Assembly (NCBI GenBank): GCA_020632265.1 | Contig: JACKFW010000001.1 | Span: 75,785 to 139,784, forward strand | Reading direction: 5' to 3' | Origin: Pseudomonadales bacterium | Lineage (GTDB): Bacteria > Patescibacteriota > Microgenomatia > UBA1400 > PJMF01 | DNA length: 64,000 nt | Shown here: positions 8,057 to 60,131 of the stretch, piece after piece | Layout: each line of letters opens with the position of its first letter | Position numbering within the stretch: the stretch's first letter is position 1 | Made by a program: the position numbers and the translations under genes | Notes under the pieces: generated by a model | Seen by the model: only the letters and a program-made list of their open reading frames with translations | Databases searched by the model: none | What the model was told of the DNA's origin: nothing

Positions 8057-9331
8057 TTAAAGTTTTAATTTGTAAGTTTTCCTATATAAAATCATACTAG
8101 TAATCAGTGTAAACACTAACAGTACTACCCTACTGACTATCCTTGTCCAAGCAGCTGCTTCAAGTCCATATTCAGGTACAAAAATTGTATTTCCGATAAG
8201 TACGACAACGAGTTGTAGAATGCCACTAACTGAAAAATACCAGTTGGCTTTGAAACTAAAGAATAAAGCAATAAATGGTACTACTGCAACTGCGATGAAT
8301 GAAGATGCAGTTAACAGGTAAAGAATATTCAGGCCAGAAATATATTCCGAGCCTATGGTAAGTAATATTGATAATTTGCCAAAAGGTAAAAATAGGATAA
8401 ATCCAATTATTGAAAGAATTGCTATTGTGAAAGCTTTTTTAATAAAAGCATTAAGGTCTTCTTTGTTTTTATACTTCGCTACTCTTGGAAACAAAACATT
8501 TCCTAATGAATATGCAATTAAAGCAAACAACATGGCAATTCTAGAAACACCAGAATATAAACCCACTTCATAGGAACTTAGATATTTTTGCAAATATAGA
8601 ACATCAATATTATCGATGAAGCCAGTTGCGATTAAACCTACGGCAGAATGTTTAGCAAGCATTAAAATTTTACTTTGCAATTTAGAATTATGAATCTTAA
8701 AATTTATCCTAGTATCTTTTGTTACAAACTTTTTCCAAAAAAGTACTGGCACTAAAGGAGCGGCAATATACCAAGTAAAAGTAATAAGTGATGAGGTAAT
8801 TCCAGTTATTAAGAGCGCTAAAGCCCATACCAATTTAGTAATTGCCTGAATAATATTAATAAATATTGCTTGATTAAATCTTTGCAAAGATTGCAGGGTA
8901 TTTAATAAATGTTCGTAATAAACAGTCGAGATCCCAATTGTTAGAGCAACCAAAATAATTAAAGGATCAGAAAAATTGAAAACTTTACTGATTGCACCTG
9001 AAAAGAAAATTCCGATTAAGATGATAAAGAATGAAATCAATAATTTATATTTAAGAGTAAATGAATAGATAAAGTTCTTCTCTTCCGTTTTTTCATTCTC
9101 AGAGCCATATCTTAAAATGGCGTTATTGAATCCGAGATCGTTAATTTTAGTTAAAATCATCACAACTGCAAATCCCACTGAAAATTCACCAAATTTCTCT
9201 GGACCCAAAACTCTTGAATAAATCATTAAAGCAATGGCTGAGATACCAGTAGCAAAAGTACTGCCAAATAGGGTTTTGACTGATTGTAGAAGGCCGTCGG
9301 AGGCAAAGATGAGTTTTATTTTTTTATGCAT
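8057..9331 (-). CDS. wzx: Wzx-like oligosaccharide flippase (polysaccharide biosynthesis protein, MOP superfamily)
   Basis: 424 aa, ~12 TM. N-terminus 'TGISAIALMIYSRVLGPEKFGEFSVGFAVVMIL' matches the Polysacc_synt signature (R-x-L-G-P-E-x-F/Y-G). Confidence 0.7.
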   Translation of the reverse strand: MHKKIKLIFASDGLLQSVKTLFGSTFATGISAIALMIYSRVLGPEKFGEFSVGFAVVMILTKINDLGFNNAILRYGSENEKTEEKNFIYSFTLKYKLLISFFIILIGIFFSGAISKVFNFSDPLIILVALTIGISTVYYEHLLNTLQSLQRFNQAIFINIIQAITKLVWALALLITGITSSLITFTWYIAAPLVPVLFWKKFVTKDTRINFKIHNSKLQSKILMLAKHSAVGLIATGFIDNIDVLYLQKYLSSYEVGLYSGVSRIAMLFALIAYSLGNVLFPRVAKYKNKEDLNAFIKKAFTIAILSIIGFILFLPFGKLSILLTIGSEYISGLNILYLLTASSFIAVAVVPFIALFFSFKANWYFSVSGILQLVVVLIGNTIFVPEYGLEAAAWTRIVSRVVLLVFTLITSMILYRKTYKLKL

Positions 9332-9394
9332 TCAAATTAGTATATATTACTTTAAAGATTAATATTACTAAATTTTAGTGCTAGAATTACCCAA

Positions 9395-10159
9395 ATGATA
9401 TATAAATATAAAGAGTTGTTATCTGAATTGACTAAAAGAGAAATTAAAGCTCGTTATAAGCAATCCGTATTGGGTTATGCCTGGGTTATTCTAAATCCAT
9501 TCTTCCAAATGTTGGTGATGGCGTTTGTTTTTTCAAAAATTTTAAGAATTACCGATTTGGGTGTGCCCTATGCCCTTTTTCTATATGTAGGACTACTTCC
9601 TTGGAATTTGTTTGCTGCATCTATTACTAGTAGCATGAACTCTCTTGTTGGAAATGGCTCACTACTAACCAAAATTTATTTCCCTCGAGAAATTTTTGTA
9701 ATTAGCACTATTCTAGCCAAGATAGTTGATTTTTTATTGGCATCAATAGTTTTGGTAATATTCTTTATATTTTTCCATCAGCAAGTCACGTTAAATATTT
9801 TCTGGATACTTCCAATATTCCTGATTCAGCAACTATTTACTTTTGGTCTGTCGTTGGTTTTGTCGGCCTTTAATTTGTTCTATAGAGATATTCAGTACCT
9901 CTTTGGTTTGATTTTACTCACGTGGATGTATATTACGCCAGTCATTTATCCTACTGAAATGTTTCCAGAGCAGTATCGATGGATTTTCAAATTAAATCCG
10001 ATGGCAATATTTATCAATGCCTATCGTCAAGTTATGTTGGGCGGCGGCTTGCCAAACTTTACAAGTTTGGGAATAGCTTTGGGACTTTCTCTAGTTATGG
10101 TCGTTATAGGGTATAAAATATTTAAAAATCTAGAAGGGATGTTTGCCGATGTCGTCTGA
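9395..10159 (+). CDS. wzm: ABC-2 type polysaccharide/teichoic-acid exporter permease (Wzm/TagG-like)
   Basis: 254 aa, 6 TM. N-terminus 'LTKREIKARYKQSVLGYAWVILNPFFQMLV' is the hallmark of Wzm/KpsM/TagG permeases. Its 3' end overlaps the downstream ATPase gene. Confidence 0.8.
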   Translation: MIYKYKELLSELTKREIKARYKQSVLGYAWVILNPFFQMLVMAFVFSKILRITDLGVPYALFLYVGLLPWNLFAASITSSMNSLVGNGSLLTKIYFPREIFVISTILAKIVDFLLASIVLVIFFIFFHQQVTLNIFWILPIFLIQQLFTFGLSLVLSAFNLFYRDIQYLFGLILLTWMYITPVIYPTEMFPEQYRWIFKLNPMAIFINAYRQVMLGGGLPNFTSLGIALGLSLVMVVIGYKIFKNLEGMFADVV

Positions 10160-10880
10160 CGTAGCTATTTCCATCCAGCATGTTTCTAAGCTTTTTAGAA
10201 AGCAGAACCAGAGAACTTTTAAGGAATTAATTCCTGCTTTATTTGGTGGAAAAAAAGTAGCTGAGTCTTTTTGGGCTTTGAAAGATATTGATCTAGAAAT
10301 TAAAAAAGGTGAAACTATTGGAATAATTGGTGTGAATGGTTCGGGCAAGTCTACTTTGCTTAAGTTAATCGCAGGTGTCTCACAGCCCACAAAGGGCAAG
10401 ATAACTACTGTTGGCAGAATGGCACCCTTGATTGAATTAGGAGCTGGTTTTCATCCAGAGTTAACAGGCAGAGAGAATGTTTATTTAAACGGGATTATCT
10501 TGGGAATGACTAGAGCCGAAGTTGATGCCAAATTCAAAGAAATTGTTGATTTTGCAGAGATTTGGGATTTTATTGATCAGCCAGTAAAGCATTATAGCTC
10601 AGGGATGTACTTAAGATTAGCTTTTGCAGTCGCAATTCACACTGAACCAGAGATTTTATTGATTGATGAGATCTTGGCTGTCGGAGATACTGCTTTCCAA
10701 GCAAAGTGTTTTAAAAAGATGGATGAGTTTAAGAAAAATAAGGTTGCTATTATGTATGTGAGTCATAATATGGATTCGGTTAGAACTTTTTGTGATAAGG
10801 TGTTATATATTGATGATAATAAAATGGCTGAATTTGGTAAAAAAGATCTGGTGCTAGATCAATATCTTAGTAAAATATAA
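10143..10880 (+). CDS. wzt: ABC transporter ATP-binding protein (Wzt/TagH-like), short form without a C-terminal carbohydrate-binding domain
   Basis: 245 aa. Walker A 'GIIGVNGSGKSTLLKLIAG', ABC signature 'YSSGMYLRLAFA', Walker B 'LLIDEILAVGD'. The annotated start at 10143 is a TTG; an in-frame ATG lies at 10149. The gene overlaps the wzm stop, consistent with translational coupling. Confidence 0.9.
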   Translation: MPMSSDVAISIQHVSKLFRKQNQRTFKELIPALFGGKKVAESFWALKDIDLEIKKGETIGIIGVNGSGKSTLLKLIAGVSQPTKGKITTVGRMAPLIELGAGFHPELTGRENVYLNGIILGMTRAEVDAKFKEIVDFAEIWDFIDQPVKHYSSGMYLRLAFAVAIHTEPEILLIDEILAVGDTAFQAKCFKKMDEFKKNKVAIMYVSHNMDSVRTFCDKVLYIDDNKMAEFGKKDLVLDQYLSKI

Positions 10881-10889
10881 GGAATTATT

Positions 10890-11567
10890 ATGAATTTAGA
10901 AGATAAAATAAAAAAAGCTAAGGAAATAATTCTAGAAGCTAGTAAAAAATGGGATCACGATAAAATTGCAATTGCTTGGACCGGAGGTAAAGATTCTACA
11001 GTTATTCTTCATATTGTTAGAGAGATGTTTGATGGTAAAGTTCCGTTTAAGTTGATGTTTAATGATTCAACTTTAGAGTTTCCAGAAATATATGATTTTA
11101 TAAGAAAATATGAAAAAGAATGGGATTTGGATTTGTTGTGGATTAAGCATCTTCCAGAAGATCTTAAAATTTATGAGACTTCATCGAATAAAGAAGAGCA
11201 AATGGAGATTTTGAGAATTGCTAAAATTAATGCATTAAACTTCGCTCTTAAGGAATATGACCTCAAAGCATTTATGTCTGGAATTAGGTGGGATGAACAT
11301 GAGGCGAGAAGTGATGAAAAAGCATTTTCTAAAAGATCTTCTCATATGAGAGTTCATCCTATTTTGCAGTTCACAGTTGATGATATCTGGAATTATATTC
11401 GAATGTTTAATGTACCTTACGTAGATCTTTATGATAAGGGATATAAGTCATTGGGTGAAATGCCATTTACTAGTCCAGTTGATGATCCAAATGCTTCAGA
11501 AAGAGCTGGAAGAGATGCAACAAAAGAAAGAGTCATGAAAAGATTGAGGGATTTAGGATATTGGTAA
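10890..11567 (+). CDS. PAPS-reductase-family PP-loop ATP pyrophosphatase-like protein (no catalytic C-terminal Cys motif)
   Basis: 225 aa. PP-loop 'IAWTGGKDSTVILHIV' (SGGKDS). C-terminal family block 'GIRWDEHEARSDE...HPILQFTVDDIWNYI...YVDLYDKGYKSLGEMP'. Lacks the 'ECG(L/I)H' Cys of true CysH reductases. Confidence 0.7.
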   Translation: MNLEDKIKKAKEIILEASKKWDHDKIAIAWTGGKDSTVILHIVREMFDGKVPFKLMFNDSTLEFPEIYDFIRKYEKEWDLDLLWIKHLPEDLKIYETSSNKEEQMEILRIAKINALNFALKEYDLKAFMSGIRWDEHEARSDEKAFSKRSSHMRVHPILQFTVDDIWNYIRMFNVPYVDLYDKGYKSLGEMPFTSPVDDPNASERAGRDATKERVMKRLRDLGYW

Positions 11568-11571
11568 AGAT

Positions 11572-13140
11572 ATGACAAAACATGTCTATCTAGTCTCTAT
11601 TGATGCACTTCGATTTGATTGTGTGCCTTATCAACAAGATAAAAGCTTTTTAAAAAAACATCGTGTTCTAAAATATCTTAAAATACCAACTTTAGAAAAA
11701 TTAACAAAAAAAAGTCTAAATTTTGAACTTGCGACTACAACGGCACCCTATACATCTGCTTCGCACGCTAGTTTGTTTACTGGCCTATATCCTCCCAGAA
11801 CTAACGTTAGATCTTTTTTTAATCCATCTTCTAGTTCATTAAATAAAAATTTAATTACTTTAGCTGAAGTATTTAAGTCTGAGGGATATAAAACTGTTTT
11901 TGCAACCGATGAAGAGTCTGTGTTTAAACCTTTAGATCTACATAGGGGCTTTGATTACTTTTTTCCAATTAACGATGATAAATTAATTTCATTTATTAAA
12001 AAAAATAAAAATGAAAAAATCTTTGTTTTTAAACATTTTTTAGATGTTCACAATCCTTACCTATACACGAGATATAGTTATAAAAAGGATGTAAATAACG
12101 ACTATGAAAAGTTTATTAGTAAAAAAATTAATAAGAAAGTAAAACTAAAAACAAATTTAAATTATTATGATTCATGGAGAAAAGTTTACGGAGGAAAAAA
12201 TAATAACATTAAATCTTTATTCCCCTTGTATGTGAAAGGAATAACTAAGTTTGATCAAGGTAGATTTAAATATTTTATCGAAAATCTAGAGAAAATGGGA
12301 GAGTTTGAAGAATCTTTATTTGCTTTTTTTGCAGATCATGGCGAAGGTAGGACAGATAAAAATGGCTTTTTTGCTCATGGAGGTGATTTATATGATGATG
12401 CAGTGAGAATTCCTTTGTTTTTAATTCATAAAGATATTCATAAAGTAAAGAATGATAAGCGTCTTGTTTCTCTAATAGATATTTTTCCTACGATAACTAA
12501 TTTTGTTTTTGGGGATGATGTTTTCTTCTATCCTAAATATAATCTTGATGGCATTGATTTGCTTAATTTTACTAATACTCATAGATATACATACTCTGAA
12601 GTATGGAAATCAAATATAATAAATCCTTTGGAATATCCAGATAATAAAGATTGGTTACTTTCAGAGAGATGTATTAGAACAAAAAATAAAAAATTTATTT
12701 TGAAAGGAAAGCCAGAAGTGTTTTTGATTTCGAATGATGATGCTCGATTTAGTCAAGGTGATATCGGTAAATATATATTAACTGAATTTAGCAATAAAGG
12801 AGTCAACCTCTCTTTTAAAGATGGGTCGTTAATTCAAGCATTGAAAGACGCAATTAGAATCTTCAATGATCGAATGACCAAATATTATGATCTAAAAAAG
12901 GACAGATGGGAAGAGAATCCAGATAATATATTACGAAATAATTATGGCTTTAAGAATAAAATATTGGTTTGGTACTTTATTAAAGCAATATATAACATTG
13001 ATAAAACAATATTAATAAATGATGAAGCTATTGCTAAATTAATTAATGATCGATTATATAACATAATTATTCGTATAAACATGAATGAAATAAATTTAAA
13101 AAATAAATTTAAGGATTTGTTGGGAAAATATTTGGCATAA
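11572..13140 (+). CDS. Alkaline-phosphatase-superfamily enzyme, type I phosphodiesterase/nucleotide pyrophosphatase (NPP)-like, cytoplasmic
   Basis: 522 aa, no signal peptide or TM. 'VYLVSIDALRFD' (metal site 1, compare NPP 'iSfDGfRyD'). 'TTTAPYTSASHASLFTGLYPPRTNV' (T-nucleophile-x-P-x-x-T...H-x-S-x-x-T-G-x-Y-P, compare NPP 'TfPnhysivTGlyPesHG'). Distal 'FADHGEG...FAHGG' (DHG/HGG metal ligands). Confidence 0.65.
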   Translation: MTKHVYLVSIDALRFDCVPYQQDKSFLKKHRVLKYLKIPTLEKLTKKSLNFELATTTAPYTSASHASLFTGLYPPRTNVRSFFNPSSSSLNKNLITLAEVFKSEGYKTVFATDEESVFKPLDLHRGFDYFFPINDDKLISFIKKNKNEKIFVFKHFLDVHNPYLYTRYSYKKDVNNDYEKFISKKINKKVKLKTNLNYYDSWRKVYGGKNNNIKSLFPLYVKGITKFDQGRFKYFIENLEKMGEFEESLFAFFADHGEGRTDKNGFFAHGGDLYDDAVRIPLFLIHKDIHKVKNDKRLVSLIDIFPTITNFVFGDDVFFYPKYNLDGIDLLNFTNTHRYTYSEVWKSNIINPLEYPDNKDWLLSERCIRTKNKKFILKGKPEVFLISNDDARFSQGDIGKYILTEFSNKGVNLSFKDGSLIQALKDAIRIFNDRMTKYYDLKKDRWEENPDNILRNNYGFKNKILVWYFIKAIYNIDKTILINDEAIAKLINDRLYNIIIRINMNEINLKNKFKDLLGKYLA

Positions 13141-13141: not shown

Positions 13142-14368
13142 ATGAAAATACTTTTAACGAACCACCATCTTAATGGTTTAACTGGCTCTGAAATATTTAC
13201 TTTTACAGTAGCTAATTTTTTATTAAAAAATAGTAATCAGGTTATACTTTATTCTAAATTCATAGATGAAACACTACCTTTCTTTGAGTCAAAAAATGTT
13301 GAAGTAATATCTGATTTAAATCTTATCAAAAATGAAAAAATTGATATAGCTCATGTTCATCATGTTACTTCTGCTTTAGAGGTAAGGTACTATTTTCCTG
13401 ATTTACCAATGGTTTATTTGTCTCATGGAATAATTCCAGACCTAGAACAAAATCCAGAACTCATTTCAAACCTAGACATTGCTAAGTTCTTAGCAGTCAG
13501 CGAAGAAGTCAAAGATAATTTAATTAAATCAGGAGTAAATAAGTCTAATGTTGAGATATTCAGAAATATTTTTAATACAGACTTATTTCATGAAAAAAGG
13601 AAAATTAACAAAAAGCTAAAAAACGTATTAGTAGTTTCTGCCAGAATCGATGAGAATAAAGAAAACAAAATAAAAAAGGCGTGTGCAGAATTAAATCTAA
13701 ACCTTAAATTTGTTGGTGGGAGATTTGGCTGGAAGAATCAAAAACAAATTTCAGAACTTATCCAGTGTTCAGACGTTGTTTTCTCTTTAGGAAGAGGTGT
13801 AATTGAAACTATGCTAAGTGGAAGAGTTCCTTTTGTTTTTGATTACTTAGGAGGTGATGGATTAATTACTCCGGAGAATTATAAAGAAAGCATGACTTGT
13901 AATTTTTCCGGTAGAAAAAATCAAAAAGATTATTCAGTAGCTGAATTAAAAAAGGAACTTTCTAAATATAATTATGAATATGGTGTTAGGCTGAAAGAAC
14001 TAGCATTAAAAGAATTTTCTGCAAATATTAAAATCAAGGAACTCATTGGTATTTATGATAAAATAATCAAGAAAAAATCCAGAGTAAAGTTGAGCAGTTT
14101 AGATAAAACAAAATTAAAGTTAATTAATTCAGTAATTTCATTAACTAAAGACTATCAGACCAACCTATTAAGTAAATATTTTGAAAAATCAATAATAAAT
14201 TATGAAGTGAATGATGAGCTTGATGGTTTAATAGTTGAATATGTTTCCTTAGAAGAGAAAAGCAAGCTGCTTTATTTTGAAAAAGATAGCTGTCAACGTC
14301 AGCTTAATAGCTTGTTAAATTCAAAGTTCTATAAATTGTCGCAATTTTTATTAAATCTAAAAAGGTAA
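13142..14368 (+). CDS. GT-B fold glycosyltransferase-like protein (GT4-like N-terminus) with a C-terminal coiled-coil extension
   Basis: 408 aa. N-terminus 'MKILLTNHHLNGLTGSEIFTFTVANFLLKN' parallels the downstream bona fide GT4 ('MKILLISHTFLPKYVGGTEVYTFELATEL'). The canonical EX7E is not obvious, so the call is tentative. Confidence 0.4.
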   Translation: MKILLTNHHLNGLTGSEIFTFTVANFLLKNSNQVILYSKFIDETLPFFESKNVEVISDLNLIKNEKIDIAHVHHVTSALEVRYYFPDLPMVYLSHGIIPDLEQNPELISNLDIAKFLAVSEEVKDNLIKSGVNKSNVEIFRNIFNTDLFHEKRKINKKLKNVLVVSARIDENKENKIKKACAELNLNLKFVGGRFGWKNQKQISELIQCSDVVFSLGRGVIETMLSGRVPFVFDYLGGDGLITPENYKESMTCNFSGRKNQKDYSVAELKKELSKYNYEYGVRLKELALKEFSANIKIKELIGIYDKIIKKKSRVKLSSLDKTKLKLINSVISLTKDYQTNLLSKYFEKSIINYEVNDELDGLIVEYVSLEEKSKLLYFEKDSCQRQLNSLLNSKFYKLSQFLLNLKR

Positions 14369-14375
14369 TAAGTGA

Positions 14376-23714: not shown

Positions 23715-23723
23715 TTGTTTTTC

Positions 23724-51422: not shown

Positions 51423-51503
51423 CCAAATTTTTTTTGATTTTTTGATTATTAATTCTTAACATATTTTTTTCATAGTTTCCCAGTGATAAATTGAGAACGT
51501 TCT

Positions 51504-52583: not shown

Positions 52584-53425
52584 TTTTTCCTTCCTAGATC
52601 ATGCTCGTTTTTCCAAAGAGCTGAGAGTTCTACTTCTTTCTCACTATATCTATCTTGAATTGTAGGATTTTGTTGAAATTCCCATACTTGAATGTAAACC
52701 AATATTCTATTAATTGCTTGAATAACAGCTTCAATTAAACCCTCCATCCCATCTCTATAACCCTTTTTCATAACTGCTCGTCTAAAAAATTCCATCCATC
52801 CTTTACGCACTAGAGTAAAAAATGTTACAGCTGGAATACTAGCTTTATATAATTCAATTGCTTCAACTGGAGTCCAGCTTGCAGTTTTATACAGACCACT
52901 TATAGTATCTCTATGAGTAAAATGAATCAGCTTAGTTTTTAAATCAATCAAATTACCTTTATAAATGGGAGTTTCATGAATATCGCCAGACCAACCCATC
53001 AAATTATCCTTTTTAAATACTCTCTCAAGAACGTCATCTTGCCAACCTCCCCATGATAATTTTTTACCAAAATATGTATTTTCTCGTTTCAATCTAAATA
53101 TTTGAGCGCTATTCGTTTCAATATTTACCATTATTTCTTTGGCCAAAATAGGACTGACTCTTTCATCAGAATCAACATAAATAACCCATTCAGATTTTGC
53201 TCTTTTTAATGCTTCCTCCCTTAATCTGGAAAATGATGAGTGTTTGAATGAAATTACTTTAGCACCATAGCTTTCGGCAATTTCTCTGGTGTCATCGATC
53301 GAACCATCATCAATTACAATTACTTCACTACACCATTTGAGTGAATTAATGCAATTGCCAATCATCTTCTCCTCATTTTTGGCAATAATTAAAGCTGATA
53401 TAGTTGGCTTGATCATATCTGTCAA
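52580..53425 (-). CDS. Family 2 glycosyltransferase (LPS-core-type GT2; paralog of 35963.. and 54552..)
   Basis: 281 aa. 'ISALIIAKNEEKMIGNCINSLKWCSEVIVIDDGSIDDTREIA', 'VIYVDSDERV', 'GGWQDDVLERVF'. Confidence 0.75.
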   Translation of the reverse strand: MTDMIKPTISALIIAKNEEKMIGNCINSLKWCSEVIVIDDGSIDDTREIAESYGAKVISFKHSSFSRLREEALKRAKSEWVIYVDSDERVSPILAKEIMVNIETNSAQIFRLKRENTYFGKKLSWGGWQDDVLERVFKKDNLMGWSGDIHETPIYKGNLIDLKTKLIHFTHRDTISGLYKTASWTPVEAIELYKASIPAVTFFTLVRKGWMEFFRRAVMKKGYRDGMEGLIEAVIQAINRILVYIQVWEFQQNPTIQDRYSEKEVELSALWKNEHDLGRKK

Positions 53426-53576
53426 ATTTATTATACCTTCAAAATGGTTAAAAAAGAAACTATGGAGATTTTAAAAAATCCTAAATTTTCACTAATCATT
53501 CTAAAATAATTTATGCAAAAAATTAGTTTACAATCTGACACATAAATTTATGAAAATATGAAAAAATTATATGAAA

Positions 53577-54509
53577 TTATAAAACTGGCTGTTTACCAAA
53601 TTGAGCAGTCAAAAAGTGAAAAATCCCAAGTCTCTGACGATTATTTCCAAACAGAATATAATTTAGACCCAATCTGAATCCAGCTAGTAGTTGATGCCAA
53701 CCACCATGCTTAAATATAAATATGAATCTATTTCTAGTTTGATAATATTCCTGGACTCCTGATCCAGATCCTCCACTCGAATTAGCATTTTTATGCCAAA
53801 CAATAGATTGAGGTACAAAATGTACTTCATATCCATTTTTTTGTGCTCTAACACTCAAATCAACATCTTCTAAATACAAAAAATATCTTTTATCAAGCGT
53901 ACCGACCTTCTCAAGTACTTCGCGTCTAATAAGCACACTACAACCAGTTGCAAAATCAGATTCCAATTGATTGTCGAAATGTCCTCGATCAACCTCATCA
54001 ACTCCACGATGAAAAGCCACTAAATGGTCCCAATCAATTGAACCACCCGCATACCAAAGTACGTTTCCAAGTTCTTGCTGTGAATACGAATCGACAAAAT
54101 ACTCGTGACCTTTGGCAAAATAAATTTTAGAGCTCATAAGACCTGCTTTTGGATATTTTTCTGCATGATCAATTAATGCTTTTAAAAATTTTGGATCAAC
54201 AATAGTGTCATTATTTAATAATAAAACAAAATCTGAATTATATTTCTCAACACAATAATGAATACCCATATTGTTCCCACCTGTATAACCTAAGTTTGAC
54301 TCGCTTCTAATTACCTCAATATCATTAGTTTTAAGTTTTTTTGGTAAAACAAATGCTTCTTTGGAGCCATTATCGACTATCAAGATCGAAAACTTGAAAC
54401 CACTAGATTTAACTTTCGACAAAGAATTCAGACATTCTAAGGTATCTGGTTGAGAATTATAATTAACAATTACGATTGATATATGTAACACGGTCTTATT
54501 ATACAACAT
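53577..54509 (-). CDS. Family 2 glycosyltransferase (rhamnosyl/galactosyl-transferase-like)
   Basis: 310 aa. 'ISIVIVNYNSQPDTLECLNSL...ILIVDNGSKE', 'VLLLNNDTIV', 'GCSVLIRREVLEKVGTLDKRYFLYLEDVDLSVRAQKNGY'. Confidence 0.85.
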   Translation of the reverse strand: MLYNKTVLHISIVIVNYNSQPDTLECLNSLSKVKSSGFKFSILIVDNGSKEAFVLPKKLKTNDIEVIRSESNLGYTGGNNMGIHYCVEKYNSDFVLLLNNDTIVDPKFLKALIDHAEKYPKAGLMSSKIYFAKGHEYFVDSYSQQELGNVLWYAGGSIDWDHLVAFHRGVDEVDRGHFDNQLESDFATGCSVLIRREVLEKVGTLDKRYFLYLEDVDLSVRAQKNGYEVHFVPQSIVWHKNANSSGGSGSGVQEYYQTRNRFIFIFKHGGWHQLLAGFRLGLNYILFGNNRQRLGIFHFLTAQFGKQPVL

Positions 54510-54551
54510 TAGAAAAATTTAAATATTTCTTCTAAAAAATTATAGCTTTCT

Positions 54552-55502
54552 TCAAAAATACAGTTTTCTTCTAATTTTCCAAAAAAGTTTAATAAAGCCA
54601 GTATTATTTTCCACCTTCCAGTCAGCAATCCAGTAAGCTAACTCTTTTTTAAATTGAGAAATTTCCTCAATTAACTCCTCTTCTTGAGCTTTGTCAGTTT
54701 CTGGAAATCCATTTAAATCCCAAACCTTCATAGCAACAGAAGCCTCAGAAATTGATTGAAGCAAAGACAAGCATAAACCATGACTACCGTCATTAATACC
54801 TCTCTGAGCAAATAGTCTGGATAGTAACTCACTATAAAATTTTTTAAATATAAATTTTGAGTCAATTTGAATATCTTTTGAATCATGAACAAACTCTTTA
54901 GCTTGAATACTACTATAATGATTCATTCTGGTTATATATTGATTAACATGTTGATAATTGTGATGAATAATTGCAATGTCCTTTTGAGCTGGTAATTCTT
55001 TCACTTCACCACTAGTGATAGGTATGGAATGAATATCATCGGACCATTCAACATGACCTTTTCTAAATAATCTCAAAACATGGTCGGGCCACCAACCAGT
55101 TTTTTCAATCCATTTGCCAAATATTAAATTTTGTCTTGGAATGTAATAACAGTCAGCAACTGCTTTTCCAATTTTGTTACCGGATTTTTCCCCACTTTCA
55201 GGGATTTCAGAAATTATATCTAAAATTGTTGTTGCGAGTTTTTTTGGAACTTCCTCGTCTGCATCTAAAATAAATACCCAATCTCCTTTTGCTTTTGAAA
55301 TTGCAAAGTTCCTAGCGGGTTCTACATAACCAACATCATCGTGGGTATATACTTTCTTGGTAAATTTATTTGCAATTAACACCGTATTATCGGTGCTTTT
55401 CATATCTACAACTACAATTTCATCTGCAAACTTTACTGATTGTAATGCTGCTTCAAGCGAAGTTTCTGCATTTTTTGTATTTATCACCACAGAAAGCTTC
55501 AT
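54552..55502 (-). CDS. Family 2 glycosyltransferase (LPS-core-type GT2 paralog)
   Basis: 316 aa. 'MKLSVVINTKNAETSLEAALQSVKFADEIVVVDMKSTDNTVLIA', 'VFILDADEEV', 'TGWWPDHVLRLF'. Confidence 0.75.
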   Translation of the reverse strand: MKLSVVINTKNAETSLEAALQSVKFADEIVVVDMKSTDNTVLIANKFTKKVYTHDDVGYVEPARNFAISKAKGDWVFILDADEEVPKKLATTILDIISEIPESGEKSGNKIGKAVADCYYIPRQNLIFGKWIEKTGWWPDHVLRLFRKGHVEWSDDIHSIPITSGEVKELPAQKDIAIIHHNYQHVNQYITRMNHYSSIQAKEFVHDSKDIQIDSKFIFKKFYSELLSRLFAQRGINDGSHGLCLSLLQSISEASVAMKVWDLNGFPETDKAQEEELIEEISQFKKELAYWIADWKVENNTGFIKLFWKIRRKLYF

Positions 55503-56956
55503 TTGAGACTCCTAACTTCTTGTAAAATTTTATTCCTACCTAATAATAATAAAGTAATTAAATAAACAAAACTAGTCAAGATTAAACCAAATCCAAAATT
55601 CACAAAACCCAATTTCCAGTAATTCATCCCCATCATTCCTACAAGCGACATCATTAAAGCTGCTACAAACTGCCTCCAAACCTGGTCAATAAACTCAATT
55701 GGAATAATTTTCTTCACAAGATAAACTGATAATACTGATGTAAATGAAATTAACAATGCGGCAATTGAAACACCATTAAATCCAAAGTAGTAAATTCCAA
55801 TTGGAGTCAAGATCCAAGTAAGTATGGTCCAAAAGATCATTAACTTTAGAGTTAAATTAATTTTACCAATGGCATTAAGAGTATTTGTTAATGGGGTTGA
55901 AATTGCTCCCCAGGCAATACTCAAACTAAATAAAATTAAACTAAATGCAGCAGGTTCCCACTTATTCCATTTTGGCACTAAACTGATAAATGGAAAAATA
56001 AAAACACTCATTCCTGCTAAAATTGGAAAGATTGCTAAGGTAATAAAAAATAATGATTTTTCAATTGCTTTTTTTAATGCTTCTGTATGCCCTTGCAACC
56101 TTGAAAATGCTGGAAAAGTTATCGCTAGCATATTTTGTACAGTAAGATTGTATGGATACATTGACCAATTTTTTGCCCACTGAATATAACCAAAGTCTCT
56201 TAGAGGTAAAATTAATCCTAAAAATAAGTAAAATAATTGATCTTTAATTCTAGCTAGAAAGTCATTGATTTGAAATTTTACTCCAAACCCAAGTAAAACC
56301 TTGAGGGAATTTTTATCTAGAGCTATGCCAAAAGACCATGGCTGTAAAATTGTCATGACTGCGACACCAACTATCGATCTAGCTACAATAGCATAAGCAT
56401 AAGCTATAGATCCAGAACCAGATAAAGCCATATATATTAGTATCCCGTGAAAAACAATTTGTTCAAAAATTTGTGGCAAAATTAATTTTGAAAAATCCAA
56501 TTTTCTTTCTAAAATAACTGATGGAATAGTTTTAAAAGTTGCAAGTGGGAACGAAATGCCCAGAGCTAATAAAATCCATTTTCCGGTTTCACCAGTTTTT
56601 GCTTGCACAAATCCAGTCAAAAGAATTATCAAAATTATTCCAAAAATAACCCAACTTAAAATTTGCTGAACTGTAAAAGCACTTCGGTAGTCATTCGCAG
56701 TAGGTTCAGAATTCTTTTGAATTAATGAGGCTGCCAAACCTACATCGGAAAAGAAAACTAGAATTCCAATAATTTGGATAACAAAACCATATATACCGAA
56801 ATCTTCAGGTGAAAAATATGAACTAAGGATGAAAATTGATACTAAACCAATTCCTTGAAGTATTAATGTTCTAATAAAATATGAGATCGCTCCTGTGACA
56901 GATTTTTTCTTAACATCTTGAAGATATTCAACTCTCTTAAGTTCTTTGGCGTTCAT
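55499..56956 (-). CDS. wzx: Wzx-like oligosaccharide flippase (MOP superfamily), second copy
   Basis: 485 aa, 12-14 TM. 'ISYFIRTLILQGIGLVSIFILSSYFSPEDFGIYGFV' is the Polysacc_synt N-terminal signature. Confidence 0.75.
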   Translation of the reverse strand: MNAKELKRVEYLQDVKKKSVTGAISYFIRTLILQGIGLVSIFILSSYFSPEDFGIYGFVIQIIGILVFFSDVGLAASLIQKNSEPTANDYRSAFTVQQILSWVIFGIILIILLTGFVQAKTGETGKWILLALGISFPLATFKTIPSVILERKLDFSKLILPQIFEQIVFHGILIYMALSGSGSIAYAYAIVARSIVGVAVMTILQPWSFGIALDKNSLKVLLGFGVKFQINDFLARIKDQLFYLFLGLILPLRDFGYIQWAKNWSMYPYNLTVQNMLAITFPAFSRLQGHTEALKKAIEKSLFFITLAIFPILAGMSVFIFPFISLVPKWNKWEPAAFSLILFSLSIAWGAISTPLTNTLNAIGKINLTLKLMIFWTILTWILTPIGIYYFGFNGVSIAALLISFTSVLSVYLVKKIIPIEFIDQVWRQFVAALMMSLVGMMGMNYWKLGFVNFGFGLILTSFVYLITLLLLGRNKILQEVRSLK

Positions 56957-56989: not shown

Positions 56990-58849
56990 TTAATAATCTT
57001 TCTTAACAATTAAGCTCTCTAATTTTTTCTTTAATAATTTCCTATAATAGCAAATTAAGGTTAACAAAAAAATTATAAGTCCAAACAATGACAAGCGATC
57101 AGAAATGATTCTAATTTTGCTTCCCTTAAATTCTAAACCCACTAAATGATTGCCCGCCTCAACAGGCACAATAATAGTTCCCAATTCTCCAACCTGGTGA
57201 GGAATCACATTACCATCAATTTTAGCTGTCCATCCAGGAAAATCAGCTAGAGCAAATTCAACAAGAGTTAGTTCTTGTGTTTCAACTTCAACCAATTTTT
57301 TTTGTGTCATATCTGCAATGATGCTGAATTTAAAATTACAATTATCTTTAGGTATTACTAATTCATTGCCAGTAAGTGAAGATGAATCGACAGACTCAAA
57401 TTCACAAAGAAACATTTTTCCAACAGGAACATAAGTAAACATAGATTTTTCAGACAAAGGTTCTGATTTCGCTATCGCCATTTGAATTGGTATAAAATCT
57501 GGTAAAGTTTTACTCATTTCTGCTCTAATTCTTTGTGAATCATCATAATATCTTAGGTTGGTCTCTGATAAAAAACCAGCTGGCTGAAAAAATTTCCAGT
57601 TTGAAAAAATAATCACTAAAAGAATTGCTCCAGCAAAAAAGAAACGGTGGAATTTTCCTTTCAAAAATTTTGAATTATATCCAATTACGATTGCTAAAAA
57701 TATTATTGAAGCTGACAACCATCGCCACGGAAATTGAATATATGATAAAAAGCTTAATTGATCCCAAATAAATTTTGATTTATAAACTGACATAAACACA
57801 GAAAACAAAAGCAATCCAAGAAATAAGAAATACAAATTAAATTTCTGAGTTAAAAAAAGATATATTTTTTTAGGATGAATTTTCTTTAAATTACCAGTGT
57901 ATGAATAGAATGATTTAATTAGCAGAATCCCAGAAATCGCTAAACCCATTAATTGTCCAGTCCCTAAATAAAATGAAATGTCATCATTTGGACCAAATGA
58001 AGATCCGCCGTATTGCCAATTATCCTCAAAAAATTGTTTGATGGAAAGAAAATGCAAATTGTAATCAAAATAGGTTGCTAGAACAGTTTGATCAATTCTA
58101 GTAAAACTCTTTTCAGCCAAGGCAGGAATTATATAAAAAGTAGAAATTAAAATGGAAAGTAAATAAGTTCCAGTTAACACCAATAATCTGCTGAACAACA
58201 ATTTAAACCAATTTTTCTCTCCATAAAAACTTATCAGCAAATAAACTGCACTAAAAATAATACTCAAAGGTATAAATATTAGCGATGTTAAATTATGGCT
58301 CAAGAGTAAGGTTATCAATGAAAATAGTAAGGTAATCCAACCATTTTTTTTATTTTTAACGACTAAAATTATTCCATAAAGAATAAATGGTAATACCATG
58401 ACACCCCAAGATTCGCTTACAGCACCTCTTACAAATAAATTTAAAGCTCGATATGGTGCCAAAGTAATTGCGGCTGCAACCACAACTCCCCAAGAACTTC
58501 CAAATAATTCTTTACCTAACTTATAGCCTCCAATCACACTTATTAATGCGGAAATCAAAAACAATGCCTTAATAGAATTAATCAAGGAAAAGCCTAGTAA
58601 GTAAATCAAGCCACCAACATAATAGGGAAGCGGTGCATAAAATTCAAATAACGGCATTCCATAACCATAACCAAAATTTTGACTCCACCTAACTGGAAAA
58701 TGACCATCACTAAGAGCATTTTTCATCTCAACGATTCTAGCTCCCTGAGTATAATCATGAACATAAAAAAAATCATTTCTAAAGAGTGCCCAAGAAGAAC
58801 TCCAAAAAATAATAAGAAGTAATAAGAATATAGTGATTTTCTTAATCAT
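56990..58849 (-). CDS. Polytopic membrane protein, candidate GT-C (YfhO-like architecture); paralog of 3604..5337
   Basis: 619 aa. See the shared N-terminal block under 3604..5337. ~13 TM, a C-terminal extracytoplasmic domain and a terminal TM anchor ('LSLFGLIIFLLTLICYY'). Confidence 0.45.
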   Translation of the reverse strand: MIKKITIFLLLLIIFWSSSWALFRNDFFYVHDYTQGARIVEMKNALSDGHFPVRWSQNFGYGYGMPLFEFYAPLPYYVGGLIYLLGFSLINSIKALFLISALISVIGGYKLGKELFGSSWGVVVAAAITLAPYRALNLFVRGAVSESWGVMVLPFILYGIILVVKNKKNGWITLLFSLITLLLSHNLTSLIFIPLSIIFSAVYLLISFYGEKNWFKLLFSRLLVLTGTYLLSILISTFYIIPALAEKSFTRIDQTVLATYFDYNLHFLSIKQFFEDNWQYGGSSFGPNDDISFYLGTGQLMGLAISGILLIKSFYSYTGNLKKIHPKKIYLFLTQKFNLYFLFLGLLLFSVFMSVYKSKFIWDQLSFLSYIQFPWRWLSASIIFLAIVIGYNSKFLKGKFHRFFFAGAILLVIIFSNWKFFQPAGFLSETNLRYYDDSQRIRAEMSKTLPDFIPIQMAIAKSEPLSEKSMFTYVPVGKMFLCEFESVDSSSLTGNELVIPKDNCNFKFSIIADMTQKKLVEVETQELTLVEFALADFPGWTAKIDGNVIPHQVGELGTIIVPVEAGNHLVGLEFKGSKIRIISDRLSLFGLIIFLLTLICYYRKLLKKKLESLIVKKDY

Positions 58850-58901
58850 TAATTTAATTGTAACTCAAAATCAATAAAAAAACCCATTTTTGCACATTAA
58901 T

Positions 58902-58979
58902 GATAAAATATTCTTTGATAAGATGATAAAATGTTGCTAGATATGATGATAAAATATTGTTTGATAAGATGATAAAATG
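58902..58979. promoter_or_regulatory. 32-nt direct repeat (2 copies, 46-bp period, 1 mismatch) in the divergent promoter region upstream of the LCP gene
   Basis: Copy A 58902..58933 'gataaaatattctttgataagatgataaaatg' and copy B 58948..58979 'gataaaatattgtttgataagatgataaaatg'. Each copy contains 'gataaaat' twice. Copy B ends 10 nt before the LCP ATG at 58989. Confidence 0.5.
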
Positions 58980-58988
58980 GAACCCTAA

Positions 58989-60131
58989 ATGAAAGAAAGC
59001 ACTGATACAAAAAATAATCTTGGTCAGGAAATACCAAAACCCAAACCAAAAACCACACCCAAGGCTGTTCCAACTGCTGGATCGATCTTCATAAAAGCCA
59101 CTTTATTAAGCTTGTTTTTTGTGATGATAATGCTGATCATCACCGCTTTTGGATTTGGGATTTGGAGTTTAAATAAGCTGAATAATTTTGCAAGACTTTC
59201 TGGTACTTCGCTTACCGAGTTAAACACAATTTTTCAAGCTGGATGGAATTTGCCAATCACTCAATCTGAGGGACATAAAAATATTCTTCTACTAGGAGTC
59301 GATAGCCTGGAATCAAGACCAGGAAGTCCAGCTCTAACTGATACAATCATGATAATTTCCACTAATTTTAAAACTGGAGAAATTTCAACCATTTCCTTGC
59401 CAAGAGACTTGTGGAGTGATGAATATTTAACCAGAATAAATGCGCTCTACTTTTATGGTCAAGAAAAATATCCTTCTGAGCCTCAAAGATTTACCAAAGA
59501 AGTGGTGGAAAATCTTACTGGCGTTGAAATCCACCACACGATTGTGATTTCTATTAATTCAGTTGCCGAAATTATTGATATTTTGGATGGAGTTGACATT
59601 GATGTAGAACAAGGATTTACCGATACAGAATTTCCAAAAGGAAATGTAGACGTTACAATTGAAAGGGATCCTGCAAAACTTTATGAAACCATTACCTTTG
59701 AAAAAGGCTTACAACGTATGGATGGAGAAAGAGTCCTACAATATATTCGTAGTCGAAAATCTGGAGATGATCAAGGTGATGATATTTCAAGATCCAAGAG
59801 GCAGCAAATCGTGATCAATTCAATGATTGGCAAGTTGCAAAATTTTAACTTGCTGGCAGATGAAGTCGTACTTGCTAAATTATATAAATATTATAATCAA
59901 AATCTATCGAAACAATTTTCTATTGAAGAAGGAATTGCATCAATAAAAGCATTATATCCCTATAGAAATAAACTTACCTTCAATCCAAATAAGTTAAGCA
60001 TATTTCCTCAAGATCCAAACGGAGTAATTTCTAACCCTCCGGTCAATAAATATAAAGGAGAATGGGTTTACGAAATCAGAAACAGAGATCTTTTTAAAGA
60101 AGAAATTTTATCCAAACTTAATTTATTATAG
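58989..60131 (+). CDS. LytR-CpsA-Psr (LCP) family glycopolymer phosphotransferase, N-terminally membrane-anchored
   Basis: 380 aa. A single N-terminal TM follows a Pro/Lys-rich cytoplasmic tail. LCP core 'ILLLGVDSLESRPGSPALTDTIMIISTNFKTGEISTISLPRDLW' and 'VLQYIRSRK...DDISRSKRQQ'. Confidence 0.85.
   Translation: MKESTDTKNNLGQEIPKPKPKTTPKAVPTAGSIFIKATLLSLFFVMIMLIITAFGFGIWSLNKLNNFARLSGTSLTELNTIFQAGWNLPITQSEGHKNILLLGVDSLESRPGSPALTDTIMIISTNFKTGEISTISLPRDLWSDEYLTRINALYFYGQEKYPSEPQRFTKEVVENLTGVEIHHTIVISINSVAEIIDILDGVDIDVEQGFTDTEFPKGNVDVTIERDPAKLYETITFEKGLQRMDGERVLQYIRSRKSGDDQGDDISRSKRQQIVINSMIGKLQNFNLLADEVVLAKLYKYYNQNLSKQFSIEEGIASIKALYPYRNKLTFNPNKLSIFPQDPNGVISNPPVNKYKGEWVYEIRNRDLFKEEILSKLNLL

Follow-up and report, generated by a model that had tools for sequence, protein, structure and literature searches.

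The window, a stretch of 64,000 nucleotides, accounts for ∼6% of a Pacebacteria-like (CPR/Patescibacteria) genome of ∼1.08 Mb; the same proteins are encoded on a 1,082,363-bp contig, and the nearest genomes are those of Candidatus Pacebacteria and Microgenomatus. Fifty genes were counted (49 real ORFs of at least 100 aa, plus the 77-aa ORF that follows the LCP gene), arranged in 13 separate same-strand runs. All but one of these, covering 96% of bases, encode glycan-related or polytopic membrane proteins, indicating that their co-location is not due to chance (Table 1). Every gene named in the initial annotation was found in its place with a score above the curated Pfam cut-off. The identities in that inventory hold, therefore, but its count was too low, since ∼20 proteins encoded by the window are polytopic membrane proteins, 12 or more of them GT-C-like. 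The glycan region runs on leftward beyond the window and there includes the gene for a second Wzy_C protein; the left flank (epimerase, PMT_2, GT4, GT4, RuvCAB) is kept in the relatives L009 and L024. The window thus represents most of a ∼75-kb cell-envelope glycan supercluster, comprising two conserved end modules (L and R) and a variable, GT-C-rich interior. The window and its 10-kb flanks yielded neither a priming phosphoglycosyltransferase (PF02397 or PF00953) nor rmlA, hence completeness is not demonstrable for any of the pathways.

Table 1. Features of the window, with coordinates, strand and principal matches.
Feature	Position	Strand	Details
Giant Wzy_C protein	99..3596	-	1165 aa; PF04932 45.3 bits vs cut-off 31.7
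GT-C-fold membrane glycosyltransferase	3604..5337	-	577 aa; paralog of 619-aa protein
PMT_2-like (GT-C) membrane protein	5425..6867	+	480 aa; PMT_2 E 1.4e-4, under cut-off
Acyltransferase_3 (O-acyltransferase)	6869..7972	-	PF01757 110.9 bits
Wzx1, PST-family (MOP superfamily) flippase	8057..9331	-	424 aa; Polysacc_synt PF01943 74.5 bits vs 28.2
Wzm, ABC-2 permease of glycan exporter	9395..10159	+	PF01061 (ABC2_membrane) 77.7 bits
Wzt, nucleotide-binding domain only	10143..10880	+	245 aa; ABC_tran PF00005 sole match
PAPS-reductase-family PP-loop protein	within 10890..13140	+	225 aa; PF01507 130.7 bits
Alkaline-phosphatase/'sulfatase' superfamily protein, soluble	within 10890..13140	+	522 aa; PF00884 98.1 bits
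Remainder of Wzm-Wzt operon	13142..19232	+	GT4, GT2 (498 aa), GT4, NDP-sugar epimerase/dehydratase, Acyltransferase_3
Putative decoration operon	19264..27292	-	Two NDP-sugar dehydratase/epimerases, polyprenyl-P-sugar-synthase-like GT2, methyltransferase, 522-aa polytopic protein, 953-aa YfhO-like GT-C
Putative decoration region	27431..40136		GT2 at 27431-28237 (+); GalE-like epimerase, DUF2079, 421-aa protein (faint GT87 match), GT4, GT2
Two polyprenyl-P-sugar-synthase-like GT2s	28234-28935, 28967-29638		Within 27431..40136
Polytopic proteins of 610 and 492 aa	within 27431..40136		Related to PMT_2
GT-C paralog run	40256..50353		PMT/PMT_2 proteins at 40256, 41955, 43642, 47457
Polytopic proteins, no known family	45493-47460, 49193-50353		655 aa, 386 aa
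Five cytoplasmic glycosyltransferases of Wzx2 operon	50382..55502	-	GT2, GT4, GT2, GT2, GT2
Wzx2, PST-family flippase	55499..56956	-	485 aa; Polysacc_synt_3 PF13440 150.3 bits vs 23
GT-C-fold glycosyltransferase (predicted fold), first gene of Wzx2 operon	56990..58849	-	619 aa; AF2 pLDDT 90.5
LCP (LytR-CpsA-Psr) glycopolymer transferase	58989..60131	+	380 aa; PF03816 LytR_cpsA_psr 100.7 bits vs 24.6
Single-pass membrane ORF between LCP and rmlB	60143..60376	+	77 aa; called as a gene in L001, L002
RmlB, RmlC, RmlD (dTDP-L-rhamnose synthesis)	60415..63000	+	RmlB TIGR01181 471.9 bits vs 365.1

Both Wzx-like proteins are members of the MOP superfamily and fall in its PST family, not among the MATE or MurJ proteins. 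Wzx1 has a second Pfam match, to PF13440 (50.2 bits), whereas the NCBIfam matches of Wzx2 (MOP flippase, O-glycosylation Wzx and TuaB) are all under cut-off. Similarity between the two is confined to 58 aa (E 2e-4), and they are not recent paralogs. The rival idea that the pair are transporters of the MATE, MurJ or another MOP type and play no part in glycan export is close to refuted: both proteins score under every NCBIfam equivalog cut-off, Wzx1 has no NCBIfam match at all and no solved structure matches either by sequence, but the gathering scores of PF01943 and PF13440 are exceeded, neither protein matches MatE or MurJ at E ≤ 0.001, both genes are embedded within glycan operons, and Wzx2 is syntenic with LCP, glycosyltransferase and rml genes in four other genomes. 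Homologs of Wzx1 (80-91% identity) were found at nine metagenome loci, in varying contexts.

Both wzx genes adjoin GT-C genes. Beside wzx1, with which the acyltransferase gene is co-transcribed, the 577-aa protein has a faint YfhO match and resembles the 619-aa protein of the Wzx2 operon (BLASTP 28% identity, E 6e-46; A2 profile E 2e-146), and the 480-aa protein has eight predicted TM segments and is paralogous to the product of 43642-45438.

The Wzm protein is conserved at 68-93% identity across more than 120 Patescibacteria clusters, with Aquifex Wzm, mycobacterial RfbD and TarG as its best solved relatives and the mycobacterial galactan exporter permease as its best NCBIfam match. The wzt gene overlaps wzm by 17 nt. 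Since ABC_tran is the only match of its product, and the best solved relatives are TarH, TagH and the nucleotide-binding domain of Aquifex Wzt (residues 20-233 of a 404-aa chain), with mycobacterial RfbE also among them, the carbohydrate-binding domain is truly absent. The earlier suggestion that the short Wzt permits export without cap recognition is upheld; TarH/TagH and mycobacterial RfbE provide precedents. Directly after wzt, the PAPS-reductase-like and sulfatase-like genes occur in the same order in L024 and L025; a C/SxPxR motif and a C-terminal Cys motif are both absent from the proteins encoded at 10890-13140. The remaining genes of the operon are separated by gaps of -4 to 17 bp.

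In the closer relatives L024/L025 and L026, the giant Wzy_C gene directly adjoins wzm-wzt in divergent orientation, whereas in the window the two are separated by an inserted cassette containing wzx1, the acyltransferase gene and two GT-C genes. Each of seven Wzm homologs lies on a contig equal in length to one that bears a giant Wzy_C homolog, three of these contigs being ≤28 kb. In the more distant relatives L027 and L028 no giant Wzy_C gene lies within 10 kb of wzm-wzt, and in L009 there is no wzm-wzt within 10 kb upstream of the giant Wzy_C gene. The giant protein itself begins with a WaaL-fold membrane domain (∼aa 1-530), followed by a further membrane module (∼550-785) and, at the C-terminus, by a degenerate domain resembling metallophosphoesterases (∼850-1165). 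A 534-aa membrane protein encoded at 29628-31232 is homologous to the central part of the giant protein (A1 profile positions 517-848, E 5e-34). A His residue is essential in both PglL and WaaL. By-eye alignment revealed no conserved WaaL-type His motif in the giant protein, hence its chemistry may differ from that of WaaL.

LPS synthesis is not known in CPR bacteria, and an acceptor other than LPS is accordingly needed. In Module L, the cytoplasmic GT4 and GT2 enzymes, the epimerase, the acyltransferase and the PP-loop and alkaline-phosphatase-superfamily proteins would complete a lipid-linked polymer intracellularly. This polymer would be exported by Wzm and the short Wzt with no recognition of a terminal cap, and the 1165-aa WaaL-fold protein would then move it from the polyprenyl carrier to a non-LPS acceptor, candidates for which include surface proteins, lipid anchors and other glycans. 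There is monoderm precedent for Wzm/Wzt operating with a Wzy_C-domain transferase (PMC2943079).

A specific version of Module L, modelled on the role proposed for WsaB of Geobacillus stearothermophilus, has the giant Wzy_C protein acting as an O-oligosaccharyltransferase that puts the Wzm/Wzt-exported glycan on surface proteins (pilins or S-layer). PglL and WsfB carry extra TPR domains; the giant protein has a degenerate metallophosphoesterase domain instead, and this extra C-terminal domain could bind the acceptor, as the TPR domains could. The direct adjacency of Wzy_C to Wzm-Wzt in L024-L026 and the need for an acceptor other than LPS are also in keeping with such a role, and Wzy_C-domain O-oligosaccharyltransferases with Wzm/Wzt and rml have been described in Gram-positive S-layer glycosylation (PMC2943079). 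However, no S-layer or pilin gene is present in the window or the examined flanks and, with the essential His of PglL and WaaL unconserved in the by-eye alignment, this version is considered unlikely.

At the opposite end of the cluster, in Module R, the genes for LCP, the 77-aa ORF and RmlBCD are divergent from those for the 619-aa GT-C protein, Wzx2 and five glycosyltransferases. The LCP protein exceeds the TIGR00350 cut-off (84.2 bits vs 62.3), has an N-terminal membrane anchor, with a TM segment predicted near aa 27, and has TagV, TagU, TagT and MsrR as its best solved relatives. RmlC and RmlD have matching best hits with scores under cut-off. The predicted fold of the 619-aa protein is GT-C: top Foldseek hits of the model were AglB, AftD, STT3, Pmt4, ArnT and PglB, and its 937 homologs have PTPS_related, YfhO or PMT_2 matches. 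Some of the five glycosyltransferases are rhamnosyltransferase-like, with 53577-54509 matching the TIGR01556 rhamnosyltransferase (62 bits).

Other Microgenomates share this arrangement gene for gene: it recurs in L011 as trmD, rmlDCB, a 79-aa ORF (53% identical to the 77-aa ORF), LCP, GT-C, Wzx, five GTs and PMT_2, with identities of 48-71%; the five glycosyltransferases correspond gene for gene (50-67%). Parts of it occur in L006, L007 and L008, and in these genomes and L011 Wzx2 shows 61-81% identity and keeps its synteny with LCP. Co-transcription of LCP and rmlBCD is seen in four other CPR genomes. LCP, whose divergent pairing with the GT-C-Wzx2-GT operon is conserved, is not the orphan of a teichoic-acid pathway encoded elsewhere, the possibility raised at the outset. 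Using dTDP-rhamnose from RmlBCD, the five cytoplasmic enzymes would assemble a lipid-linked, rhamnose-containing oligosaccharide, to be flipped by Wzx2, extended or transferred outside the membrane by the adjoining GT-C protein, and attached to peptidoglycan by LCP.

Encoded in the interior are three polyprenyl-P-sugar-synthase-like GT2s, together with no fewer than nine further GT-C-like membrane proteins. The short GT2s have polyprenyl-P-sugar synthases (PgfS, AglJ, PpgS, ArnC) as best matches, that at 24383-25126 matching PgfS, AglJ and ArnC, and all three assignments are under curated cut-offs. The 953-aa YfhO-like protein matches the A2 profile (E 3e-5), and the product of 47457-49076 has a homolog in L011 (59% identity). 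Wzx1, its acyltransferase and the two GT-C proteins may act together with these interior GT2s and GT-C-like proteins, the sugar-modifying enzymes and the methyltransferase. Such routes would be of the extracytoplasmic decoration type, and are likened here to the GacIJKL, WpsABGJ and CsdAB systems.

The initial annotation took three export routes to imply at least three distinct glycopolymers. This does not follow, since Gram-positive wall polysaccharides employ Wzx plus GT-C decoration routes: in the rhamnose polysaccharides, an ABC exporter, Wzx-family flippases (GacK, WpsG), GT-C enzymes and LCP yield one composite polymer from one locus, a single-locus precedent for Wzx-family flippase plus GT-C decoration with LCP anchoring (PMC9574508). 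One independent polymer per route, with two or more final acceptors, would suit the three distinct exporter types, the limited similarity of the Wzx pair, the two kinds of attachment-type enzyme and the 13 gene runs. It is nevertheless decidedly improbable, given that flippases of the Wzx family (GacK, WpsG; PMC9574508) also supply GT-C enzymes with single sugars or side-chain units, and that the Wzx1 operon has acyltransferase and GT-C genes but no cytoplasmic glycosyltransferase set of its own. Moreover, the window contains neither Wzz/PCP co-polymerase nor priming enzyme for any route, and the giant Wzy_C protein is its sole Wzy-family match, four polytopic proteins being without family assignment.

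Conversely, the whole locus could make one composite wall polysaccharide with a single final acceptor, in the style of Lactococcus/Enterococcus/Streptococcus rhamnose polysaccharide or mycobacterial arabinogalactan. The Wzm/Wzt-exported backbone would then be the LCP substrate, fixed to peptidoglycan, with both Wzx routes bringing side-chain units for GT-C enzymes to graft onto it, and the giant Wzy_C protein, like Wzy or WpsI, polymerising a side chain. An ABC exporter, Wzx, GT-C, LCP and rml in one locus is the documented Rha-CWPS recipe (PMC9574508), and the mycobacterial relatives of Wzm and Wzt, the GT-C genes adjoining both wzx genes and the abundance of GT-C-like proteins (at least 12) are all consistent with it. 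However, L011, L006 and L008 keep LCP, rml, Wzx2 and glycosyltransferases together with no ABC exporter nearby, so LCP has its own Wzx-dependent partner, and the gene linked to Wzm-Wzt is neither LCP nor rml but that of the WaaL-fold protein; a single composite polymer is therefore possible but rather unlikely. The exporter-to-attachment pairings are drawn solely from gene adjacency. In every characterised Gram-positive system that we know of, LCP enzymes attach ABC-exported polymers, hence the alternative pairing is quite possible.

The explanation that we favour, with about even confidence in the whole, has Modules L and R producing separate backbones at the two cluster ends, accompanied by decoration routes. 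The analysis shows gene identities, folds and synteny, whereas all substrates, exporter-to-ligase pairings and acceptors are inferred. The earlier claim of at least two final acceptors is plausible on gene order, given that in relatives each attachment enzyme has its own linked exporter. Most likely, then, the three export routes of this organism serve two backbones and their decorations rather than three independent polymers, and the backbones may plausibly be delivered to two different final acceptors.

The window has a G+C content of ~30% and is almost wholly coding; excluding trmD, 49 real ORFs of 100 aa or more and a single ORF of 77 aa account for 96% of its bases, arranged in 13 same-strand gene runs with gaps of between -23 and 151 bp. 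A Pfam scan of every ORF recovered all of the genes named in the initial annotation, at the positions tabulated below and with scores above gathering thresholds. Some 20 polytopic membrane proteins were revealed by a hydropathy scan, and seven proteins gave direct Pfam matches to GT-C families (five PMT/PMT_2, one YfhO and one DUF2079). Further proteins were tied to GT-C by paralogy, by profile, or by the faint GT87, YfhO or PTPS_related matches that were all that relaxed Pfam scans returned for membrane proteins lacking a family, and the window holds at least 12 GT-C genes. The best matches of three short GT2 proteins are polyprenyl-phosphate sugar synthases (PgfS, AglJ, PpgS and ArnC), with scores below the curated cut-offs, and one GT2 matched a rhamnosyltransferase subfamily, also below cut-off.

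Features of the window, with Pfam or TIGRFAM matches (bit score versus cut-off)
Feature	Position	Strand	Family match
Giant Wzy_C protein, 1165 aa	99-3596	-	
577-aa GT-C protein	3604-5337	-	
Wzx1	8057-9331	-	PF01943, 74.5 vs 28.2
Wzm	9395-10159		PF01061
Wzt, 245 aa	10143-10880		PF00005 only
PP-loop and 'sulfatase'-family pair	10890-13140		
Polytopic protein without family	22146-23714		
Short GT2	24383-25126		
Short GT2	28234-28935		
Short GT2	28967-29638		
Polytopic protein without family, 534 aa	29628-31232		
Polytopic protein without family	45493-47460		
Polytopic protein without family	49193-50353		
Wzx2	55499-56956	-	PF13440, 150.3 vs 23
119-aa ORF within wzx2	55824-56183	+	
619-aa GT-C protein	56990-58849	-	
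LCP protein	58989-60131		PF03816, 100.7 vs 24.6; TIGR00350, 84.2 vs 62.3
77-aa ORF	60143-60376		

Since the genomes closest to the window are those of Candidatus Pacebacteria and Candidatus Microgenomatus, and since named homologs are nearly all from Patescibacteria, the host is a CPR bacterium, Pacebacteria-like and with a genome of ~1.08 Mb, and the public label 'Pseudomonadales bacterium' looks wrong for this contig. Identical proteins (H6772_00590 and neighbours) are deposited under that label on a contig of 1,082,363 bp, and a metagenome contig of 119,918 bp also matches the window. The window alone represents 5.9% of the host genome. The glycan region goes on to its left with an epimerase gene, a PMT_2 gene and two GT4 genes, then ruvCAB, then genes for an acetyltransferase, a GT2 and a second Wzy_C protein, and the whole supercluster occupies 6-7% of the genome. 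The ruvC, ruvA and ruvB genes thus lie amid glycan genes (L004, left of the window, 13573-23498), with the GT4 pair on one side and the acetyltransferase, GT2 and 573-aa Wzy_C genes on the other, an arrangement kept in related loci L009 and L024.

Both flippases scored above cut-off with PST-family models and gave no MatE or MurJ match at E <= 0.001, consistent with the initial assignment as Wzx-type proteins as opposed to MATE transporters; movement of polyprenyl-(P)P-linked sugars is predicted from the family match. A crude hydropathy scan found 8-9 strong transmembrane segments in each, and more at a lower threshold, the family having ~12. An ORF of 119 aa lies wholly within wzx2 on the opposite strand; public assemblies do not annotate it, and it is probably spurious. 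GT-C genes adjoin both wzx genes, and the Wzx1 operon is without a cytoplasmic glycosyltransferase set of its own. Wzx1 homologs of 80-91% identity have gene surroundings that vary among relatives: Wzm-Wzt lies alongside in one of the six informative loci, and a gene of the 577-aa type together with the giant Wzy_C gene lies downstream in one.

The wzm and wzt genes, which overlap by 17 nt, encode an ABC-2 permease and an ABC ATPase whose best solved relatives are Aquifex Wzm-Wzt, TarGH, TagGH and mycobacterial RfbDE, although every NCBIfam equivalog score was below cut-off. The initial annotation described the ATPase as a short form devoid of the C-terminal carbohydrate-binding domain, and this proved correct: the protein stops at residue 245, and its best solved relatives are the nucleotide-binding domain of Aquifex Wzt (matched over residues 20-233 of a 404-aa chain), TarH, TagH and mycobacterial RfbE. 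The absence of the carbohydrate-binding domain is therefore genuine. Short ATPases of ~245-265 aa, with export that is not gated by a terminal cap, are likewise a feature of Staphylococcus aureus TarGH, Bacillus subtilis TagGH and Mycobacterium tuberculosis RfbDE, and the Klebsiella pneumoniae O2a Wzm/Wzt is another glycan ABC exporter without the domain. Unlike these systems, which are not described with such genes, the window has PP-loop and alkaline-phosphatase-superfamily genes conserved directly after Wzt. The presence of Wzm-Wzt alongside in only one of the six informative Wzx1 loci had hinted that the exporter might be an accessory, strain-specific cassette, an idea that was rejected because Wzm is 68-93% identical over more than 120 Patescibacteria clusters. 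In more distant relatives, large methyltransferase or methyltransferase-GT2 fusion proteins follow or lie near Wzm-Wzt (L028, 11584-13656; L027, 14887-16398); these resemble the chain-terminating enzymes of capped ABC pathways, yet Wzt is still short there, at 242-244 aa.

The giant Wzy_C gene is directly divergent to Wzm-Wzt in related loci L024/L025 and L026; in the window, a 5.7-kb cassette encoding the 577-aa GT-C protein, a PMT_2-like protein, an acyltransferase and Wzx1 lies between them. The link is not universal, the giant Wzy_C gene being absent within 10 kb of Wzm in the more distant L027 and L028, and Wzm being absent within the 10 kb upstream of the giant gene in L009. Within the same genome pairs, Wzm and Wzt are 74-89% identical versus 31-34% for the adjoining giant protein, a gap in sequence identity which suggests that the exporter either is under very strong constraint or has recently been exchanged among CPR lineages. 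The PAPS-reductase-like and 'sulfatase'-like genes that follow Wzt in the window do so too in L024/L025, with identities to those counterparts of 73% and 35%, respectively. The former encodes a PP-loop protein with a TGGKDS motif and without the C-terminal Cys motif, such that a true CysH is unsupported, and the latter a soluble protein without the C/SxPxR formylglycine motif, such that a true sulfatase is unsupported. It is possible that the pair serves the ABC pathway in polymer modification or in provision of a terminal cap. In L024 (16138-20314) the Wzm-Wzt operon runs on into genes for a CotH/beta-helix protein of 913 aa, a protein with a VTC domain and a DUF4956 protein, suggestive of a polyphosphate or kinase connection that is absent from the window.

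The 1165-aa architecture of the giant Wzy_C protein is kept in 520 Patescibacteria homologs. The AlphaFold2 model (pLDDT 88.4, pTM 0.84) has three parts, with both a Wzy_C domain and the WaaL membrane fold present, and the middle membrane module is homologous to a stand-alone 534-aa protein encoded within the window (profile E 5e-34). Compared with Cupriavidus metallidurans WaaL (7TPG/7TPJ), the protein shares 13% sequence identity and is ~630 residues longer. The conserved periplasmic His of WaaL (H337 in Escherichia coli, in an HN...E.G motif) was not found: matched by eye, the giant family carries TDNNFLRTLGETG as an invariant motif where E. coli WaaL has LHNEIIEAGSLKG, which contains H337, and the family segment has no His. 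D438-N439-N440 are invariant in 71 homologs at the WaaL-His motif, and the sole invariant His is H115. Since the catalytic loop stayed unaligned when E. coli WaaL was compared with the CPR family by profile, the statement that the His is missing rests on the by-eye motif comparison and the list of invariant columns. The CPR group to which the Pacebacteria-like host belongs is not known to make LPS and, unlike that of WaaL, this host is probably without a lipid A-core. The giant protein is classed as a WaaL-fold transferase and, in view of the host, not as WaaL. Sequence searches of solved structures with the giant protein, the 619-aa protein and Wzx2 returned nothing useful, and the profile of the giant family gave a marginal Mre11 match alone (E 0.4).

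A distant Patescibacteria genome (L011) has the same gene order as the right-hand end of the window, with gene-for-gene counterparts that are 48-71% identical: trmD, rmlD, rmlC, rmlB, a 79-aa ORF and LCP, divergent from GT-C, Wzx, GT2, GT2, GT2, GT4 and GT2, with PMT_2 further on. The Wzx2/LCP/rml core also occurs in related loci L006, L007 and L008, with Wzx2 identities of 61-81%. The possibility, raised initially, that the LCP gene belongs to a pathway encoded elsewhere is therefore not borne out, since the gene sits in a conserved local pathway. The LCP protein has an N-terminal transmembrane segment near residue 27 and its solved relatives are TagV, TagU, TagT and MsrR, although scores against the named equivalogs TagU (66.2 bits versus a cut-off of 441), LytR (42.7 versus 450) and CpsA (33.4 versus 650) all fell short. 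The 77-aa ORF between LCP and rmlB, which encodes a single-pass membrane protein, has been annotated as a gene in L001 and L002, keeps its position and sequence in L011 (79 aa, 53% identity), and has a faint EbsA-like match as its sole family hint. The first gene of the Wzx2 operon encodes the 619-aa protein, for which 937 homologs were found; since the best structural matches of its AlphaFold2 model (pLDDT 90.5) are the GT-C enzymes AglB, AftD, STT3, Pmt4, ArnT and PglB, it is a GT-C transferase and not a Wzy polymerase. Both it and the 577-aa protein had been candidates for a missing Wzy polymerase and were rejected as such because of their GT-C fold; the first outer loop carries the expected acidic residue, H31 and D32 being close to invariant.

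The giant Wzy_C protein is the sole match to a Wzy family in the window, where four polytopic proteins are without family assignment. No match to Wzz/PCP was found in the window or 10 kb either side, and over the same interval there was no GtrA-type small flippase, nor room for one, the sole small ORF being that for the 77-aa protein. Despite the presence of ~50 glycan genes, neither rmlA nor a priming phosphoglycosyltransferase (Bac_transf or Glycos_transf_4) was found in the window or the 10-kb flanks (L001, L004). Initiation must be specified elsewhere, or else must begin on polyprenyl monophosphate via the three synthase-like GT2 proteins.

The initial annotation held that three export routes at one locus imply at least three distinct glycopolymers. 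It was right on the protein families, on a local LCP and on a Wzt that lacks a binding domain, but the polymer count does not follow, because a single locus can combine ABC exporter, Wzx, GT-C and LCP for one polymer (PMC9574508). In Gram-positive rhamnose wall polysaccharides, several routes are combined into one composite polymer: the backbone leaves through an ABC exporter, Wzx-family flippases (GacK, WpsG) deliver single sugars or side-chain units, GT-C enzymes act on the extracellular side, and LCP provides the anchoring (PMC9574508). The Lactococcus cwps, Streptococcus gac/rgp and Enterococcus epa loci share with the window rml genes, ABC exporter, Wzx, GT2s of the polyprenyl-P-sugar-synthase type, GT-C and LCP, which in those loci directs the polymer to peptidoglycan (PMC9574508), as well as conserved ends with a variable interior. 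With respect to rhamnose supply, RmlB of the window is above the equivalog cut-off, RmlC and RmlD are best matches only, and rmlA and a primer are absent from window and flanks. The window differs from these loci in having far more GT-C genes, no identified RgpA/B/F-type or GacO-type genes, an additional WaaL-fold enzyme, and a CPR host with a small genome.

Mycobacterial arabinogalactan assembly (RfbD-RfbE, Aft/Emb GT-C and Lcp1) also resembles the window in its Wzt without a carbohydrate-binding domain, dTDP-rhamnose supply, LCP ligase and many GT-C enzymes acting on lipid-linked donors; the best NCBIfam match of the window Wzm is a galactan exporter permease, with all scores below equivalog cut-offs, and the top fold matches of the 619-aa protein include AftD. 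However, GlfT- or Ubi-type genes were not identified in the window, and arabinogalactan assembly uses neither Wzx flippases nor a WaaL-fold protein. In the slg clusters of Geobacillus stearothermophilus and Paenibacillus alvei, which have rml genes within the locus, Wzm/Wzt exports a complete lipid-linked glycan that is then transferred by the Wzy_C-domain protein WsaB or WsfB, in a bacterium that lacks LPS (PMC2943079). The window enzyme is distinguished from WsaB/WsfB by its length, extra membrane module and degenerate metallophosphoesterase domain; Geobacillus Wzt is proposed to bind a 2-O-methyl cap, whereas the window Wzt is without a binding domain, and there is no S-layer gene or WsaP-type primer near the window locus.

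Synteny argues for two putative backbone modules, whose substrates, pairings and acceptors we infer, and the locus interior has the look of a reservoir of decoration systems. Each module would have its own exporter and attachment enzyme, with Wzm/Wzt serving the WaaL-fold protein, and Wzx2 and GT-C serving LCP. For the former, the nearest precedent for pairing without LPS is S-layer glycosylation, in which Wzm/Wzt operates with WsaB (PMC2943079). The opposite pairing, in which LCP takes the product of the ABC exporter, is a serious alternative, being the arrangement of all characterised Gram-positives; unlike in the cwps, gac/rgp and epa loci, however, LCP and rml in the window are tied to the Wzx operon and not to the ABC exporter. 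With Wzm/Wzt paired with the WaaL-fold protein and Wzx2 with LCP, two final acceptors are plausible, because each module has its own export and attachment enzyme, and we infer peptidoglycan for LCP and a non-LPS acceptor for the WaaL-fold enzyme.

A more inclusive reading is put forward tentatively, and we consider it rather doubtful as a whole. The giant protein would stand for a class of glycan ligase found throughout the Microgenomates lineage, in which a WaaL-fold domain with Asp/Asn replacing the catalytic His is fused to a further membrane module, possibly GT-C-like, and to a degenerate metallophosphoesterase domain. The ligase would be functionally coupled to a Wzm/Wzt lacking the carbohydrate-binding domain and, on a CPR cell free of LPS, would attach the polymer exported by the ABC route to an acceptor other than LPS, while a second, Wzx/GT-C/LCP-dependent rhamnose polymer would be carried on peptidoglycan. 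If so, these ultra-small symbionts would devote 6-7% of the genome to two separately anchored, heavily decorated surface glycans.

CPR bacteria, or Patescibacteria, are ultra-small organisms that for the most part live on other microbes and from which many biosynthetic pathways are missing; to our knowledge, almost no work has addressed their surface chemistry. No description of CPR wall glycopolymers or their loci emerged from literature searches, and a paper on the lipocone superfamily that mentions Patescibacteria is not relevant to this locus (PMC12419801). The kind of system encoded here is already known, the variant being unusual in its host, its share of the genome, its GT-C density and its fused WaaL-fold protein without the His motif. 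For the claim of three polymers the value of the analysis is corrective, in that tallying exporters inflates polymer number, and two candidates are offered for experimental testing, namely the LCP/Wzx2/GT-C/rhamnose module and the giant WaaL-fold enzyme linked to the ABC exporter. The conservation of the locus ends across Microgenomates, together with the variable, GT-C-rich interior and the share of the genome committed, suggests that surface glycans play a central part in how these organisms live, with possible roles in recognising hosts or in escaping phage or predators.
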